This document shows positions 21-61,388 of a DNA stretch of 64,000 nt, one piece after another. The first letter of the stretch is position 1. Each line of letters begins with the position of its first letter. The stretch is from Candidatus Syntropharchaeum sp. (lineage in GTDB: Archaea > Halobacteriota > Syntropharchaeia > Syntropharchaeales > Syntropharchaeaceae). The stretch covers positions 16,166-80,165 of the forward strand of contig JAOQII010000003.1 in NCBI GenBank assembly GCA_026134025.1, in the 5' to 3' direction. A program made the position numbers and the translations under genes. The notes under the pieces were generated by a model that saw nothing but the letters and a program-made list of their open reading frames with translations, did no database searches and had not been told where the DNA came from.

Positions 21-986
21 TTAGAGAATTATATCAATGTTGAGTTCCTCTGCAAGCTCCTTGTATCTGTTTCTTATCGTAACCTCTGTAACACCTGCAA
101 CCTCTGCAACTTCACGCTGTGTCTTTCGCTCACCACAGATGATTGAAGCAATATAGATCGCGGCAGCAGAGACGCCGGTTGGACCTCTTCCCCCGGTCAG
201 CTCCTTATCACCAGCCTGCGTCAAAATCTCGATCGCCTTTGACTGTGCTTCCCCTGATATATTGAGGCTTGAGCAGAATCGTGGTACATAATCGATCGGC
301 GAGGTCGGCTGCAACTTCAGTCCAAGCTCCCTTGAAATGAACCGATATGTGCGCCCAATCTCCTTTCTATTGACTCTTGAGACCGCCCCAATCTCATCGA
401 GCGTTCTTGGAACATTACACTCCCTGCAGGAGACATACAGTGCAGCAGCGGCAACACCTTCGATGCTTCTACCCCTTATCAGGTTGTTCTCAACCGCATC
501 CCTGTATATCTTGGCGCCAGCTTCCCTGACATTCTTTGGAAGTCTTAACGCAGATGCCATCCGATCGAGTTCAGATAGCGCGAATGCAAGGTTTCTCTCG
601 GTTGCATTGCTTACTCTTATCCTTCGCTGCCATTTTCTAAGCCGATAGAGCTGCGCTCGGTGCTTGGAAGAGATAGATTTTCCATAAAAATCCCTGTTCC
701 TCCAGTCTATCATTGTACTCAGACCTTTGTCATGGATCGTCAGCGTCATCGGCGCTCCAACACGTACTCGCTTTGTACGCTGATCTGCATCAAAAGCTCG
801 CCATTCTGGTCCCAGATCAATGAGATCTTCATCGATCACGAGCCCGCAATCATCACAGACAAGCTCTGCACGCTCGTAATCATTAACAAGATTGTGACTG
901 CCACACTCAGGGCACTCGATCATCGCTTTATCAAAATCCCCAAGATTTTCTTTCTCAGGGGTATTATCTAAATTTTTCAGTTCCAA
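21..986 (-). CDS. tfb: Transcription initiation factor IIB (TFB)
   Basis: N-terminal zinc ribbon CPECGS...CDDCG followed by two cyclin-like repeats; typical length of 321 aa. Confidence 0.9.
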
Positions 987-54963: not shown

Positions 54964-56001
54964 ATGCAGGAGAAATCTAACCATGATCGTATCTTTTATA
55001 TTATTTGCGGGATTGTCCTGCTTCTTGCATTTCTACTTTTACTGAGGGCTATCTTCCCGCTCTTTGATGGGATTATCCTGGGAGTCGTCTTTGCCTATGT
55101 TGCAAGACCGATAAAGAGAAAGCTTGCGGTTCTTGGCGAGGTGCTTTCATCAGCGATCGCAACACTGTGTATCATCATCCCGATCGTATTAATCGTTATA
55201 CTGGGGATTGGTGAGGCGATACGGCAACTTATCTGGCTAAGTTCGAAGCAGGAAGAGATCCTGAGTAAAACGTTGGGACTTCTGGGTTCAGATTTAGTTC
55301 CAGCGGATATTACAAATATGATCTATCAACGGCTACCAGAGATCCTGGATTACGTCACACCCATCCTTCACTCGATAATATCCATCGAGACGACGATAAA
55401 CATGGGTATCCTCCTCCTTAATGTCTTTGTACTCATCGTTGTTGCCTACTACCTCCTTGCAGATGGTTCAAAGATCGTCACCGCCATCCTCAAGCTTGTA
55501 CCTCTCGGAAAAGAGGATGTGGCATTGCAATACATACGTGAGGTCGATGATATAATTGCAGGGATATATGTTGGAAACTTCTTTGTCGCACTCCTGATCG
55601 GTCTTTTATCTGTTCCTTTCCTCTTTGCCTTCAAAGTGCCGATGGTTGCGCTGATTGCAAGCCTCGTATTTCTTGCGGCTCTGGTACCACTTCTTGCAAA
55701 GTGGATGATCTGGGTTCCAATCTCAATCTATCTCTTCTACACATCCGGGATATATCCTGCAATCGCTTTCTTCATTCTGGTTCTGATTTTCATCGACGTC
55801 GCACCTGAGTTTTTTATACGACCAAAGCTCATAGGCTTGACGTCAAAGATACACCCGCTCCTGCTGCTTCTTGCTTTCATCGGTGGCGGCATTACAGGTG
55901 GTATCGCAGGATTCTTTGGGGCGCCTGTACTTGTTGGAATCCTCGTAGGATCGTATAACGTCTATACCATGAGTGAGAAAGAGGAAGAAACGGAGGTATG
56001 A
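54964..56001 (+). CDS. AI-2E/PerM (UPF0118) family membrane transporter
   Basis: 8 TM helices with the characteristic long loop; about 345 aa. Confidence 0.5.
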   Translation: MQEKSNHDRIFYIICGIVLLLAFLLLLRAIFPLFDGIILGVVFAYVARPIKRKLAVLGEVLSSAIATLCIIIPIVLIVILGIGEAIRQLIWLSSKQEEILSKTLGLLGSDLVPADITNMIYQRLPEILDYVTPILHSIISIETTINMGILLLNVFVLIVVAYYLLADGSKIVTAILKLVPLGKEDVALQYIREVDDIIAGIYVGNFFVALLIGLLSVPFLFAFKVPMVALIASLVFLAALVPLLAKWMIWVPISIYLFYTSGIYPAIAFFILVLIFIDVAPEFFIRPKLIGLTSKIHPLLLLLAFIGGGITGGIAGFFGAPVLVGILVGSYNVYTMSEKEEETEV

Positions 56002-56004
56002 CCA

Positions 56005-56931
56005 ATGGGCTCCAGACACTTCGAAGGTGGACTTACTGGACTCGCTATCGGTGACGCACTCGGAATGCAGGTTGAAGGTTTAAGCTCCTATGAGTTTATC
56101 AGTGATTATGGTGATGCAAGGGTTGATTCTGTGAATTACCCACTCAAAGCAGGCCAGTACACCGATGATACGCTTCAGATGCTCATCCTTACCGATTCAA
56201 TCCTTGAGGCAGGTGGGTTTGATATTTCATCCTTCACAACAGCACTTAAATCATGGGGCAGGGAGATCATGAATGATCTGACCCTATCCCGTGGGATTGG
56301 ACCAACCAGTATCGATGCGATCCAGAAACTACTTGATGGTGTACACTGGGAAGAATCAGGGGGTATGAATCCAACGTGTGGTTCTGCAATGAGGGTTGCA
56401 CCGATAGGACTGCTTTATTCTCATGATCTTGATCTGACAGCCGAAATGGCGGCAAAATCGAGTATTCCAACGCATAGAAGTGATGAATCAATTGCAGGAG
56501 CTGTTGCAGTGGCTGTTATTGTTGCAGGGGTAGCTTCAGGGATTGATATATTAAATGCAGCAAAAAAAGCAGTAGATTATGCAGATGCACACTCAAAAAA
56601 GTTTTCTGATAAGATTCGACTTGCAATCTCGCTCAGAGATGATCCACCAGAGACTGTACTGAAGACTATCGGGACGTCGATTCTCGCCATCGAGAGCGTT
56701 CCAGCCGCGATATTTGCTGCACTTCATGGAGGAAACTTCGAGGATGCGCTGCTCATTGCGGTTAATCATGGCGGTGATACCGATTCAATCGGGGCAATGA
56801 CAGGTGCGATCAGAGGTACGATGCATGGTCTTGATGGCATACCACAGAGATGGCTCGATGGACTTGAGGATTGTGCCAGGATCATCAGCTATGCAAAAAG
56901 ATTATATGCCTTGCATGAAATGATCATCTGA
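56005..56931 (+). CDS. ADP-ribosylglycohydrolase family protein
   Basis: GLAIGDALG...YTDDTLQ N-terminal motif; C-terminal GGDTDSIGAM motif. Confidence 0.8.
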   Translation: MGSRHFEGGLTGLAIGDALGMQVEGLSSYEFISDYGDARVDSVNYPLKAGQYTDDTLQMLILTDSILEAGGFDISSFTTALKSWGREIMNDLTLSRGIGPTSIDAIQKLLDGVHWEESGGMNPTCGSAMRVAPIGLLYSHDLDLTAEMAAKSSIPTHRSDESIAGAVAVAVIVAGVASGIDILNAAKKAVDYADAHSKKFSDKIRLAISLRDDPPETVLKTIGTSILAIESVPAAIFAALHGGNFEDALLIAVNHGGDTDSIGAMTGAIRGTMHGLDGIPQRWLDGLEDCARIISYAKRLYALHEMII

Positions 56932-57443
56932 TGAGCACGCCAGAAGAGCACAGGAAAGGAGCAAAAGAGCGGTTTGACCTATCTCTGATCACGATATCAA
57001 CTTCCAAGTACTTTGATCGTGAGCGTGATGACCTGTCAGGTAAACTTGCAAGAGCGATACTCGAGAAAGCTGGGCACACGGTTTCATCAATGATTATTCT
57101 GCCTGATCAGAAAGATATGATCAGACGTGAGCTGCTCCGACTTATATTATCTGATACAGATGCGATCATAACAAGCGGAGGCACAGGACTTACCCCCGAT
57201 GATCTCACGATCGAGACGATCGCACCACTCTTCAAGAAAGAGATCACTGGTTTTGGTGAGCTATTCAGGAGATTGAGCTATGACAAAATCGGTACAGCCT
57301 CAATGCTTTCGCGTGCTGCTGCTGGTGTGATCGAAGGGAAGCTGATCATCTGCCTGCCTGGTTCACCAGATGCGGTAAAACTCGCGCTCGAAGAGATAAT
57401 CCTGCCAGAGCTTCCTCACCTAATGCGCCACATAGCCGGGTAG
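56931..57443 (+). CDS. moaB: Molybdenum cofactor biosynthesis protein MoaB/MogA
   Basis: ITSGGTGLTPDD motif; 170 aa. Confidence 0.8.
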   Translation: MSTPEEHRKGAKERFDLSLITISTSKYFDRERDDLSGKLARAILEKAGHTVSSMIILPDQKDMIRRELLRLILSDTDAIITSGGTGLTPDDLTIETIAPLFKKEITGFGELFRRLSYDKIGTASMLSRAAAGVIEGKLIICLPGSPDAVKLALEEIILPELPHLMRHIAG

Positions 57444-58047
57444 AATAACTTTAGAGTATTTTGATTTACCCCTCCCCACACCAGTCAAAACTTAAAACGA
57501 ACTCCCCCTCATGAATAAGTGCCGTTAACACCAGATTCTCCATCAATATTCATTCATCACCCCTATTTCCCCCCTCTAATCCTTAATTTGACGACAGCTT
57601 ACGCTAAGCTGCCTCCCGGTGACTGATCGTACGAAGCTGATAAAGATCAAAGGCGAATGCAGTGAAGATCATTTTCACACCAGTTCTTGCCACGGTCGTT
57701 ACAGTTAATCAGGGGATCTATTTGTGCAAGCCTACACCTGGACGTTTGACCTTTGCATACTCTTCATTCAAAAAATAATCGATTAGGGACTTTATAATTA
57801 TTATATTAGGAAAAGAGATCAATAATGCTTTCGGTTTTGGTTAAAAAGATTTTTTAGTGGTTTGTTGTGTTTGGTAGGGTTGAGGGTGGGGGGGTTTTCA
57901 AAGTTCCATATAGAAGTAGTAGGGCTCTGTACCTGTTGCCTCGTTCTCAGGGACGATCATCTGGAAGTCTTTTGTTGTCCCATCATACGCCTGGTATATT
58001 TGCCTGAACGTTGTATCGGGGGAAAATACATCGCCAGTATACCCAAT

Positions 58048-59238
58048 CTAAAACCACCTGTGAAAGGCATCATGCATAACCGCCTCAATATCAATCCCTG
58101 TAACACCGATTACAATATACGCGCCCAGGAATGTTCCGATAATGCTCCCGATATTTGCAAGGGCTGCGACAAGAAGAATCTTGAAGACCGGGTTTTTCAG
58201 GAGTTCAGAAATGGTCTCAACATCGACCAGACCCTTCAAATCCGATGTAGCAGGCGATCTAACCCATGCTTCAACGAGACCTGCAAACCATCCTGCTGCG
58301 ATCATCGGGTTCAGGGATGTGAGCCATGCAACAGCAAACGCCGTGAGAACCGAGAGTGGATGCCCCCGTGCGATTATAACACCACACGCTGAGAGAATGC
58401 CGTTTATGATGATCCAGTAAAAAAGTGCAAGAAGAAGACGATCCATCGAAACCCCTGAGGTAAGTATGACAAAGAGCGTCACCATCAAGAAGAGAAAGAT
58501 CATGATCCCGAAAACCTTCCCAAGATTGAATCGCTTCTTCGGGACTGATCTGAGATCTCCTTTCCGGGTGATCAGGGATGGGTCCTTGAGGTGTCTATCA
58601 ATCCCCTCAAGATGCCCCGCTCCGACAACAGCAACGATCCTGCCCTTAAGGTGCAGTAGCTGATTGGCGATGTATGCATCCCGTTCATCGATTAAGACCT
58701 CTGCAGCAGATGGTGAAAACCTCCTCAGTTCTTCGATTAGCTGTGATACTATATCGGCGTCTGTGATATTATCGATCTCGATCTCCTCTTCACCAAAGCC
58801 GATGAGAGATGCGATTATCGCAAATAACATCCTGAACTTCTCCCTGAGTTTCATCTTGCCCCAGAACCGCTGCATCGTAATCGCGATGTCTCGATCAATG
58901 AGTGCGATCCTTATCCCCTGCTCTTCTGCCGCTTCGATTGCTGCAAGCATCTCCGCTCCTGGTTCGACCCCCATCTCGCGCCCAATCTTTCGTTGAACGT
59001 ATGCCATGAGATACTGCATTAAGAGGAGGTAGACGTTTCCGCTTTTTATCACATCTTTTATCGGTACCTCTTCAACCTCTCCTTTTAAAGCCATATATCG
59101 TCTCTGGCAGAGTTCGACAGCCACAATATCTGGTTTTATCTGATCAATCGCCTCACGAACCTCTCTCACACTCTTTTCAGATACGTGAGCTGTTCCGATG
59201 AGTGTTACTTCCTTTTCTGATTCGTTCATTCCTTTCAT
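58048..59238 (-). CDS. TraB/PrgY/Tiki-superfamily protein with C-terminal TM domain
   Basis: GTxH motif LIGTAHVSEKS at the N-terminus and a second GxxH motif VVGAGHLEGI; 4 predicted C-terminal TM helices. Confidence 0.7.
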   Translation of the reverse strand: MKGMNESEKEVTLIGTAHVSEKSVREVREAIDQIKPDIVAVELCQRRYMALKGEVEEVPIKDVIKSGNVYLLLMQYLMAYVQRKIGREMGVEPGAEMLAAIEAAEEQGIRIALIDRDIAITMQRFWGKMKLREKFRMLFAIIASLIGFGEEEIEIDNITDADIVSQLIEELRRFSPSAAEVLIDERDAYIANQLLHLKGRIVAVVGAGHLEGIDRHLKDPSLITRKGDLRSVPKKRFNLGKVFGIMIFLFLMVTLFVILTSGVSMDRLLLALFYWIIINGILSACGVIIARGHPLSVLTAFAVAWLTSLNPMIAAGWFAGLVEAWVRSPATSDLKGLVDVETISELLKNPVFKILLVAALANIGSIIGTFLGAYIVIGVTGIDIEAVMHDAFHRWF

Positions 59239-59239
59239 C

Positions 59240-60340
59240 TCACATTCTTAAGATCTCTATCGAACGTATAAGATCTGTCTTTGAGAGGATGCCGACAAGT
59301 ACCCCGTCTCTTACCACAAGAATTCGTCCGACATTGTGTTGACTGATGAGCCTCAGAACCTCGGCAGCAGATTCATCTTCTGTAACCGCAATAGGATCCG
59401 TTGACATTATATCACGAACCAAAACCTCATCAAGCTTATCCTTTGGCACATTCTTGACATCCGTGAGGCTCACAATTCCAATAGGGGATCCATCGGCATC
59501 AAGAACCGGATAACCTTTGTGCCGGTCGGTCAGCATAAAATCAAGAAGTTCCCGCACAGTGATATCCGGGTTGACGGTCACAACATCTCTTGATATGAGA
59601 TCTCTTATCTCTACCCCTTCAAGGAAGGTTTGAATGTTTGTTGCAGTCTCCTCCTCCGATGCTGCAATGTAAATGAAGAACGCGATCAGGATCAGCATCC
59701 ACCCGCCGTAGATCAACCCGAAGACTCCCATTAAGATCGCAAAGATCTTTCCAATCTGGACAGCCATCCTTGTGGCAGCTATATAAGATGATTCCCGCTT
59801 TGCGAGATATGCCCGCAGTATCCTTCCCCCATCCATCGGAAAGGCAGGCAGGAGGTTGAAGACCGCGAGAATTATATTGATATATCCCATCGCAAATGCA
59901 AGAATGCCGAAACCTTCCCACCAGATGTTTCCGGGGATTGTACTGAAGGGTACATGGAGTATGAGAAACGTCGAACCGATAAGGATACTTGCAAGTGGTC
60001 CTGCGACAGCGATCCTTGACTCAACCTTTGGATCCCTTGGTATCTCTTTCATCGATGCGATCCCACCGAAGATGAAGAGCGTGATCGACTCGATCGCAAC
60101 GCCATGGCGCATCGCAATATAAGAGTGTGAGAGTTCATGTGCGATAACACATGCAAACAGGATGATTGTTGTGAGCGTTGCAAGTATAAATCTCGCGTAA
60201 AACGGCTCAATCTCAGCGAAACCAAAAGGAGCTGGTTGATTCATAAATATCAGGATGAATGGTGGCAGGATCAGAAGAAATGTGATGTGAAGTTTTATCG
60301 GTATCCCAAGTGCCTTACCGATCTCGATCGATGTTCGCAT
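59240..60340 (-). CDS. Site-2 protease (M50 family) with tandem CBS domains
   Basis: HELSH zinc motif within a TM helix, LDG motif FPMDGGRI, two C-terminal CBS domains; 1-nt gap to traB. Confidence 0.8.
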   Translation of the reverse strand: MRTSIEIGKALGIPIKLHITFLLILPPFILIFMNQPAPFGFAEIEPFYARFILATLTTIILFACVIAHELSHSYIAMRHGVAIESITLFIFGGIASMKEIPRDPKVESRIAVAGPLASILIGSTFLILHVPFSTIPGNIWWEGFGILAFAMGYINIILAVFNLLPAFPMDGGRILRAYLAKRESSYIAATRMAVQIGKIFAILMGVFGLIYGGWMLILIAFFIYIAASEEETATNIQTFLEGVEIRDLISRDVVTVNPDITVRELLDFMLTDRHKGYPVLDADGSPIGIVSLTDVKNVPKDKLDEVLVRDIMSTDPIAVTEDESAAEVLRLISQHNVGRILVVRDGVLVGILSKTDLIRSIEILRM

Positions 60341-60395
60341 GCACCTTATATAATAGATCTATCTATTTAGCTTTAGCGACCATGAGAGGTAAAAA

Positions 60396-61388
60396 ATGGA
60401 TGAACGTATAATCTCTCCTGCAAAGAAAGATGATGAGACCTGTGAGTTTGATCTCAGGCCACGCAGCCTCTCAAACTTCATTGGACAGGAGAAGGTGAAG
60501 GAACAGCTAAAGATCTTCATCGAGGCTGCAAAGGGGCGAAAAAGCGTACTTGATCATATCCTCTTCCACGGGCCACCTGGACTTGGAAAGACGACACTTG
60601 CCAGGATCATAGCTGAGGAGATGGGGGTTAATATCCTCTCAACGAGCGGTCCTATCCTTGAGAAAGCTGGTGATCTCGCCGCGATCATAACAAACCTATC
60701 CGAAGGGGATATTCTCTTCATCGATGAGATTCACAGGCTCAATACAGCGGTCGAGGAGATCCTCTATCCTGCGATGGAGGAGTTCAAACTTGATATCATA
60801 ATCGGAAAAGGACCTGGTGCTCGCTCGATAAAGCTCAACACACCCCATTTTACACTTATAGGTGCAACCACAAAGACCGGGCTTCTCTCTTCACCCTTAA
60901 GGGATAGATTTGGGGTAATATCAAGGATGGAATTTTACACGCCCCACGAGCTTCAGAGGATTGTGGAGAACGCATCAGATATGCTTGGAATCAGGATTGA
61001 ATCCGATGGCGCAGGAGAGATCGCGAAGCGCTCGAGGGGTACGCCAAGAATTGCTTTGAGGCTCTTGAGACGGGTTCGTGACTTCGCAGAGGTCAGGGGG
61101 GATGGCACCATCGATCAAAGAATTGCTGATATGGCACTCAAGATGCTCGGGGTTGATGCGGTGGGGTTTGATGAGATGGATCGGCTCATCATATCGACGA
61201 TCATCGATAAGTTTAACGGGGGTCCTGTCGGACTTGATACGATCGCATCAGCGATAGGGGAGGATTCAAACACGATTGAGGATGTCTATGAGCCCTATCT
61301 ACTCCAGCAGGGTTTCATAAACAGAACGCCACGTGGTAGAGTTGCAACCCCGATCGCGAAGGGGTGGTGGAAGGCGCATCCTGAGTGA
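60396..61388 (+). CDS. ruvB: Holliday junction branch-migration ATPase RuvB (bacterial type)
   Basis: Near-collinear match to bacterial RuvB: [66 protein letters not shown]-terminal winged helix. Confidence 0.85.

Follow-up and report, generated by a model that had tools for sequence, protein, structure and literature searches.

What might an intramembrane protease and a TraB/PrgY-family protein do for an archaeon that encodes them side by side? The question is raised by two adjacent genes in a 64,000-nucleotide stretch of DNA from Candidatus Syntropharchaeum sp. (GenBank assembly GCA_026134025.1, contig JAOQII010000003.1, positions 16,166 to 80,165 of the forward strand; hereafter the window, whose own numbering is used below), one coding for a site-2 protease (S2P) with tandem CBS domains and the other for a full-length TraB/PrgY-family protein. 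We find that the adjacency is real yet lineage-restricted and that TraB is linked, independently, to a second M50 subfamily that lacks CBS domains; by analogy with enterococci, S2P and TraB probably cooperate on peptides that are cleaved within the membrane.

Both protein families are already known and routinely annotated, TraB/PrgY since the 1990s. Archaeal S2Ps of the CBS type, MJ0392 and the Archaeoglobus fulgidus enzyme (AfS2P), serve as structural models of intramembrane proteolysis; the literature that we searched yielded neither a physiological substrate for them nor a demonstrated enzymatic activity for prokaryotic TraB/PrgY proteins. The two families meet in Enterococcus, where signal peptidase II cuts lipoprotein precursors after their lipidation, the S2P Eep then cuts the signal peptide in the membrane to give a pheromone, and plasmid-encoded PrgY/TraB specifically reduces the endogenous pheromone peptide (PMC7117660). 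Eep and PrgY thus target the same peptides, derived from lipoprotein signal peptides (PMC7117660; PMC10202637). A sequence-only reading that had singled out the gene pair cited this precedent rightly, and its impression that the pairing was undescribed agrees with our search of the full-text literature, in which no description of an S2P-TraB pairing was found, several key subscription papers being beyond reach. What is new here is the conserved operon and the double linkage to S2Ps; the link itself would be visible in gene neighborhood databases.

Organization of the gene pair

The S2P gene (59240 to 60340, minus strand) encodes 366 residues and the TraB gene (58048 to 59238, minus strand) encodes 396 residues, and the two are separated, as had been read from the sequence, by a single nucleotide (59239) between the TGA stop of S2P and the first ATG of TraB (AGA ATG TGA g ATG AAA GGA ATG). 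An identical public protein (P0001; 100% identity, 393 aa) is consistent with a start at the second ATG (59229), which would leave a spacer of 10 nt; with either TraB start, coupling of the two genes is tight. A promoter cannot fit into a spacer of 1 nt (or 10 nt), and from the 1-nt spacing, the one observation that bears on the point, we infer that S2P and TraB are co-transcribed. The sole candidate promoter for the pair, picked out by eye, is an A/T-rich box (CTAAATAG) located approximately 24 to 31 nt 5' of the S2P ATG, in the 55-bp divergent intergenic region between S2P and ruvB (60341 to 60395, likewise read by eye). The closest relatives of both proteins are those of Candidatus Syntrophoarchaeum butanivorans, with identities of 72% for TraB and 70% for S2P, which points to a Syntropharchaeia-like archaeon as the origin of the window.

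Conservation of the S2P-TraB adjacency

A survey of gene neighborhoods had been proposed in the sequence-only reading, for which absence of the adjacency from every related genome was the outcome to fear; the result is clearly the opposite. We sampled 80 species-representative loci around TraB homologues in GTDB genomes and queried them with the window S2P. An S2P-CBS gene lies directly upstream of TraB, on the same strand, in 53 of the 80 loci (3 of the 27 negative loci are too short upstream for judgement). The positive loci come from Syntrophoarchaeum butanivorans, Methanocellales, Methanolobus, Methanococcoides, Methanohalophilus, Methanomethylovorans, Methanosarcina, and Methanothrix/Methanotrichaceae, and their products share 49 to 72% (TraB) and 41 to 70% (S2P) identity with the window proteins. 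In 39 of the 53, at most 60 nt separate the S2P stop codon from the earliest possible TraB start codon; Methanosarcina, with 400 to 1300 nt, is the chief exception. When all open reading frames (ORFs) of the 80 loci were clustered, S2P was the only family broadly kept beside TraB, the next commonest families occurring in 25 loci, and no third conserved gene, whether for a substrate or for a regulator, was found with the pair. The pair persists while the flanking genes are reshuffled, and because it recurs in 53 of 80 loci despite these changing flanks, the adjacency is far beyond chance. The signs of a conserved operon, namely, a common strand, operon-range spacing, distant lineages, and varying flanks, are all present. 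The same order, S2P-CBS and then TraB, is found on an Archaeoglobus contig (L094), where the two genes overlap by 25 nt and the S2P matches the crystallized chain 5g5r (E = 4e-65), being an orthologue of AfS2P.

Two other genes occur near the pair in some of these loci. In the Archaeoglobus sp. contig (L094, 2937 to 5673), S2P-CBS and TraB are followed in a row by an archaemetzincin gene (Peptidase_M54, 161 aa) that overlaps the TraB stop by 4 nt; archaemetzincin was rejected as a core member, being absent from all other fetched loci and from the window. A signal peptidase I-like ORF, recognized by eye from its motifs, lies approximately 3.5 kb upstream of the pair in L003 (707 to 1261) and in 13 other loci (ORF family 7), separated from S2P-TraB by a Cdc6/Orc1-like ORF among others. 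We treat it as local synteny, noteworthy given the signal-peptide hypothesis discussed below.

Linkage of TraB to a second M50 subfamily

The opposite order, TraB followed after 38 nt by a short M50 gene without CBS domains, rests on two Thermoplasmata contigs, and two further relatives of the Thermoplasmata TraB (approximately 50% identical) do not have it. Between the two contigs the TraB proteins are 58% identical and the M50 proteins 38% identical; over the catalytic core, the short M50 is only 28% identical to the window S2P and is, by this distance, a member of a different subfamily. Both M50 types flank TraB in L002 (4906 to 7778, a Methanocellales metagenome-assembled genome) and L004 (4837 to 7796, the complete 987-kb genome of "Methanosarcinales archaeon Met33H"), in the order S2P-CBS, TraB, short M50, the last encoding a CBS-less protein of approximately 210 aa and starting 8 nt downstream of TraB. 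The linkage of TraB to the CBS-less subfamily is independent of its linkage to S2P-CBS.

In the Thermoplasmata contigs (L083, 4001 to 5919; L095, 4001 to 5930), the TraB and short M50 genes directly follow the gene for ribosomal protein S2 where a ribosomal/RNA-polymerase cluster ends, a position that suggests constitutive, housekeeping-level expression.

The site-2 protease

By its sequence, the window S2P is a group III (CBS) site-2 protease and an orthologue of MJ0392 with intact catalytic motifs, and intramembrane cleavage is predicted for it. It matches Pfam Peptidase_M50 (PF02163) at 76.1 bits against a cutoff of 27.2, and core residues 2 to 247 align with MJ0392 (PDB 3b4r; E = 1.1e-41). 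A regular-expression search of the translation placed the zinc-binding, catalytic HELSH motif at residues 68 to 72 (60125 to 60139, minus strand), as had been claimed, opposite HELGH of MJ0392, whereas the "LDG" of the sequence-only reading is actually MDG within a canonical NxxPxxxxDG motif (NLLPAFPMDG, residues 162 to 171; 59828 to 59857, minus strand), which aligns with NLIPAFPMDGG of MJ0392 and contains the third zinc ligand, an Asp. The tandem CBS domains were correctly recognized; Pfam CBS (PF00571) scores 99.1 bits in two stretches, and the CBS pair (residues ~243 to 361; 59258 to 59614, minus strand), a putative cytoplasmic nucleotide-sensing module, aligns (E = 4.6e-19) with PDB 5g5r, the CBS domain of a protein deposited under the name site-2 protease. 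Pfam detects no PDZ domain in the protein, and the RseP equivalog model gives just 21 bits against a cutoff of 147, which sets it apart from the Eep/RseP type. S2Ps bearing CBS domains form group III, SpoIVFB included (PMC10202637), and the window S2P matches SpoIVFB (8vjl) with an E value of 1.3e-8.

The architecture of MJ0392 (mjS2P, 3b4r) and of AfS2P (5g5r), a six-transmembrane (TM) M50 core followed by tandem CBS domains, and their motifs are orthologous to those of the window protein. In the papers searched, both enzymes are treated as structural models and a partner gene is not mentioned; the linkage to TraB adds to what is described for them.

The TraB/PrgY-family protein

The window TraB is, as judged by profile and alignment, a complete member of the TraB/PrgY family (arCOG02142 type) within the TIKI superfamily, with predicted hydrolase activity. 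It matches PF01963 at 114.6 bits (cutoff, 26.8) and the TIGR00261 "traB" model at 415.5 bits (cutoff, 178.35), the latter spanning residues 8 to 379 of 396. A tblastn search of plasmids with this protein returned 422 Enterococcus records, and the alignment with TraB of the enterococcal pheromone plasmids is collinear, in effect over the full length, from residue 8 to residue 372 (33% identity, E = 3e-38). The GTxH and GxxH motifs hold on proper alignment, as the sequence-only reading had anticipated. GTAH (residues 15 to 18; 59185-59196), E42 (59113-59115), and GAGH (residues 206 to 209; 58612-58623), all on the minus strand, are invariant in 52 homologues together with R47, R116, R124, and R186, and the same residues are invariant in a set of 13 sequences from archaea, Leptospira, Cytobacillus, and Enterococcus.

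The AlphaFold2 model (pLDDT 76) has an N-terminal α/β domain with a parallel-sheet core, as in the TIKI fold (catalytic domain, residues 8 to 217; 58588 to 59217, minus strand), followed by long helices. Its best Foldseek matches are a TraB-family chain of the Tetrahymena complex IV and then ChaN (2g5g), both of which belong to the TIKI-EreA-ChaN superfamily. The fold and the His/Glu catalytic constellation are common to the window TraB and to Tiki1 (a Wnt N-terminal protease), RRSP, and the TIKI-EreA-ChaN superfamily; Tiki is an extracellular single-pass protein made with a signal peptide, and RRSP is a toxin domain that is soluble, whereas the window TraB has the multi-helix membrane domain specific to TIGR00261 and no signal peptide. 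The name "metalloprotease" attached to it in the sequence-only reading is an assumption that is not established, since some TIKI-superfamily enzymes are metal-independent, among them RRSP, a proven TIKI-family endopeptidase (PMC6254334).

The C-terminal membrane domain (residues 239 to 380; 58099 to 58524, minus strand) has the four long hydrophobic helices that had been read from the sequence, placed by hydropathy and AlphaFold2 at approximately residues 239 to 260, 265 to 289, 294 to 309 (plus 315 to 327), and 350 to 380; judging from the distribution of Lys and Arg, helices 294 to 309 and 315 to 327 may form a re-entrant hairpin instead of a full span. Its invariant polar motifs are GHP (292 to 294), NPxxAAGWFAGxVE (310 to 323), R327, P329, D333, and N349. 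From Enterococcus to archaea, W275, G280, H293-P294, P311, G316-W317, E323, R327, P329, D333, and N349 are invariant or nearly so.

None of the 52 homologues has a signal peptide or TM segment before the catalytic domain, and the mean number of Lys plus Arg residues is 4.5 before the first TM helix versus 0.2 in loop 1. Because the segment preceding this helix is rich in Lys and Arg, the positive-inside rule predicts a cytoplasmic location for the TraB catalytic domain, which is also where the CBS pair lies. According to published work, the active site of the MJ0392 S2P opens to this side, too. The N terminus of human TRABD likewise faces the cytoplasm in a published study (PMC12329661).

No S2P-TraB fusion was found among 150 diverse TraB representatives, in which the long proteins carry HAD domains or low-complexity extensions; in P0234 (603 aa), an N-terminal HAD-family hydrolase domain is fused to a full TraB, and the extensions of the other long TraB proteins are unassigned. 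In Methanosarcina and relatives (L017, L037, L040, L061, L064, L070, and L074), TraB carries a lengthy extension at its N terminus (total length up to ~513 aa), and the one extension inspected, that of P0017, is acidic and of low complexity.

A proposed pathway for membrane peptides

We propose, with moderate confidence, that the locus is a conserved two-gene operon encoding a two-step module for the clearance or processing of membrane peptides. S2P would cut a transmembrane segment within the bilayer; its substrates would most plausibly be leftover signal peptides, possibly those of lipoproteins, the alternative being a membrane-tethered protein, and the CBS pair may tune the cleavage to the nucleotide status of the cell. 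The hydrophobic product would exit toward the cytoplasmic face, the TraB membrane domain would take it up, and the TIKI catalytic domain would trim or degrade it. We infer the cooperation of the two proteins, whether physical or sequential, and likewise their order of action, their topology, and their substrate.

So construed, the pair would be a chromosomal, hard-wired counterpart of the Eep and PrgY/TraB relation. Eep and PrgY/TraB of Enterococcus faecalis (pCF10, pAD1) belong to the same two protein families as the window pair, and the catalytic motifs and membrane domain of TraB align. The differences lie in the type of protease and in the gene arrangement: Eep is a chromosomal group I (PDZ) enzyme, whereas the window S2P belongs to group III, and enterococcal PrgY/TraB is plasmid-borne beside traC/prgZ and prgX (in Enterococcus record L093 the TraB gene lies between traC and prgX), whereas the window genes form a single chromosomal operon without signaling genes. 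Hydrolysis of signal peptides by S2Ps is documented for several bacteria (PMC10202637), where RseP of Escherichia coli and Lsp plus Eep of Streptococcus provide a precedent for S2Ps that clear or process leftover signal peptides; unlike the window S2P, these systems have no TraB partner.

Among the genes that co-occur best with lipoproteins, a 2025 study names archaeal TraB (arCOG02142); it also describes the archaeal lipoprotein signal peptidase as not yet identified (PMC12462473). Taken together, these two observations single out leftover signal peptides of lipoproteins as an appealing class of candidate substrates. A bolder proposal, which we consider unlikely, is that S2P-TraB is part of the missing downstream half of archaeal lipoprotein biogenesis. 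In its stronger form, TraB would act as a signal peptidase analogue that releases the signal peptide, which S2P would then cut; in its weaker form, another peptidase would cut first and the pair would remove and destroy the lipoprotein signal peptides. If either form were true, it would give the first biochemical role for TraB/PrgY outside the enterococcal plasmids and the first substrates for archaeal S2Ps.

More generally, if the clearance or processing pathway is true, leftover signal peptides become candidate substrates, a candidate route for their removal comes into view, and peptidomics has simple predictions to test. Each of the two orphan families gains a specific partner with which it can be studied, along with a class of possible substrates, and a hard-wired operon makes the relation between Eep and PrgY testable without the plasmid pheromone circuit. 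Coupling of S2P and TraB is supported by its occurrence in several archaeal classes and by the second S2P linkage, and tractable hosts are at hand in Methanosarcina and Haloferax (unlinked copies).

Several observations weigh against the proposed pathway. The spacer in Methanosarcina measures 400 to 1300 nt and contains no ORF of at least 70 aa, so that co-transcription is doubtful and the genes may be transcriptionally uncoupled there. The ANME-1 loci have no S2P neighbor and carry aRF1 upstream of TraB instead; TraB has no M50 neighbor in some ANME-2, in Altiarchaeota, in Methanofastidiosia, on two other archaeal contigs, or in any bacterial locus examined. In Haloferax volcanii, the CBS-type S2P HVO_0285 adjoins the cupin HVO_0284, and a TraB neighbor is not reported. 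The PrgY literature takes the active domain to be extracellular (PMC7117660), in conflict with the cytoplasmic location predicted here, and the co-occurrence of TraB with lipoproteins is a phyletic correlation from a single paper (PMC12462473). Neither substrate experiments on archaeal S2Ps nor enzyme assays of prokaryotic TraB proteins turned up in the searched literature. Should the functional link fail, what is left is still a clean, conserved gene pair that current annotation pipelines overlook.

Alternative explanations

TraB might instead be a regulator or gatekeeper of S2P, its membrane domain docking onto the protease and controlling the access of substrates in the manner of BofA and SpoIVFA on SpoIVFB, an explanation that we consider unlikely although it fares best among the alternatives. 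SpoIVFB of Bacillus subtilis is likewise an S2P of the CBS type whose operon also codes for a controlling membrane protein, and the group III assignment of the window S2P and its match to SpoIVFB given above fit this picture. Membrane proteins that occupy the active-site cleft inhibit SpoIVFB (PMC9042235); the putative translational coupling of S2P and TraB suggests a 1:1 stoichiometry, and the TraB membrane domain has invariant polar motifs that could serve for docking. SpoIVFA and BofA, for their part, are inhibitors without relation to TraB, and archaea have neither the substrate pro-sigma-K nor a sporulation context. TraB is widespread without a neighboring S2P, and across hundreds of millions of years of divergence its GTxH, E42, GxxH, and conserved arginines have not changed, even in lineages that lack an adjacent S2P, which argues for a retained enzymatic activity and against a purely regulatory role.

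Classical regulated intramembrane proteolysis, with TraB as the priming ("site-1") protease that shortens a membrane-tethered regulator before the S2P cut frees an effector, seems rather improbable. The sequence-only reading had offered regulated intramembrane proteolysis as one function, but no substrate regulator or site-1 step is identifiable, and no such gene is conserved with the pair in the 80 loci. Tiki is a site-specific processing protease, not a degradative one, which counts for TraB as a site-1 protease. S2Ps typically require an earlier cut (PMC10202637), and the CBS pair suggests that S2P activity is regulated rather than constitutive. Site-1 cuts, however, are normally extracytoplasmic, whereas the TraB catalytic domain is predicted to be cytoplasmic, and enterococcal PrgY acts after the S2P, not before it.

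The adjacency could also be inherited synteny of two unrelated housekeeping membrane proteins without functional coupling, which we judge improbable. All 53 S2P-CBS/TraB loci fall in one large clade (Halobacteriota), and ANME-1 and some ANME-2 have lost the adjacency without apparent replacement. The pairwise identities of S2P and TraB correlate with r = 0.92, as expected from vertical co-inheritance; shared phylogeny alone yields such a value, and this mirror-tree result was rejected as evidence of coupling. On the other hand, the flanks are not conserved while the pair is, operon distance is kept in most loci, TraB stands beside the other M50 subfamily in the other order in Thermoplasmata, with both M50 types flanking it in L002 and L004, and Enterococcus provides a functional link between these two families.

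A role of the pair in both producing and tuning a peptide signal that is secreted, as part of an archaeal system for pheromones or quorum sensing analogous to cCF10/cAD1, is very improbable: the S2P and TraB are homologous to the enterococcal pheromone-producing and pheromone-shutdown (TraB/PrgY) proteins, respectively, but the peptide-signal processing suggested by the sequence-only reading finds no counterpart in the window or the 80 loci, where no gene for a regulator or PrgX/TraA-like receptor, PrgZ/TraC-like binding protein, precursor, or transporter (dedicated exporter) is linked to or conserved with the pair, the archaeal S2P is of the CBS and not the PDZ/Eep type, and the distribution resembles that of a chromosomal housekeeping pair.

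Neighboring genes in the window

The 604 bp between TraB and the convergent moaB (57444 to 58047) contain A/T-rich promoter-like runs and no real-looking ORF of at least 50 aa. Neither elsewhere in the window nor in the fetched loci was a sequence similar to this stretch found, and Rfam gave no match to the operon, its surroundings, or the window as a whole (for the 604-bp stretch, none at E values up to 1).

According to Pfam, the neighbors of the pair are RuvB, MoaB, an ADP-ribosylglycohydrolase, and an AI-2E-family transporter. The last three are encoded head to tail on the plus strand (54964 to 57443) in the order AI-2E-family transporter, ADP-ribosylglycohydrolase, MoaB, with 3-nt or overlapping junctions (56001/56005 and 56931/56931), and look like a second operon that converges on TraB. 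On the other side, divergent from S2P at a distance of 55 bp, lies, in an otherwise archaeal window, a gene for a bacterial-type RuvB, a Holliday-junction helicase (60396 to 61388, plus strand; NCBIfam equivalog, 510.9 bits against a cutoff of 282), which is followed by a geranylgeranyl reductase gene and not by ruvA. Bacterial-type RuvB is unusual in archaea and may have been acquired horizontally.

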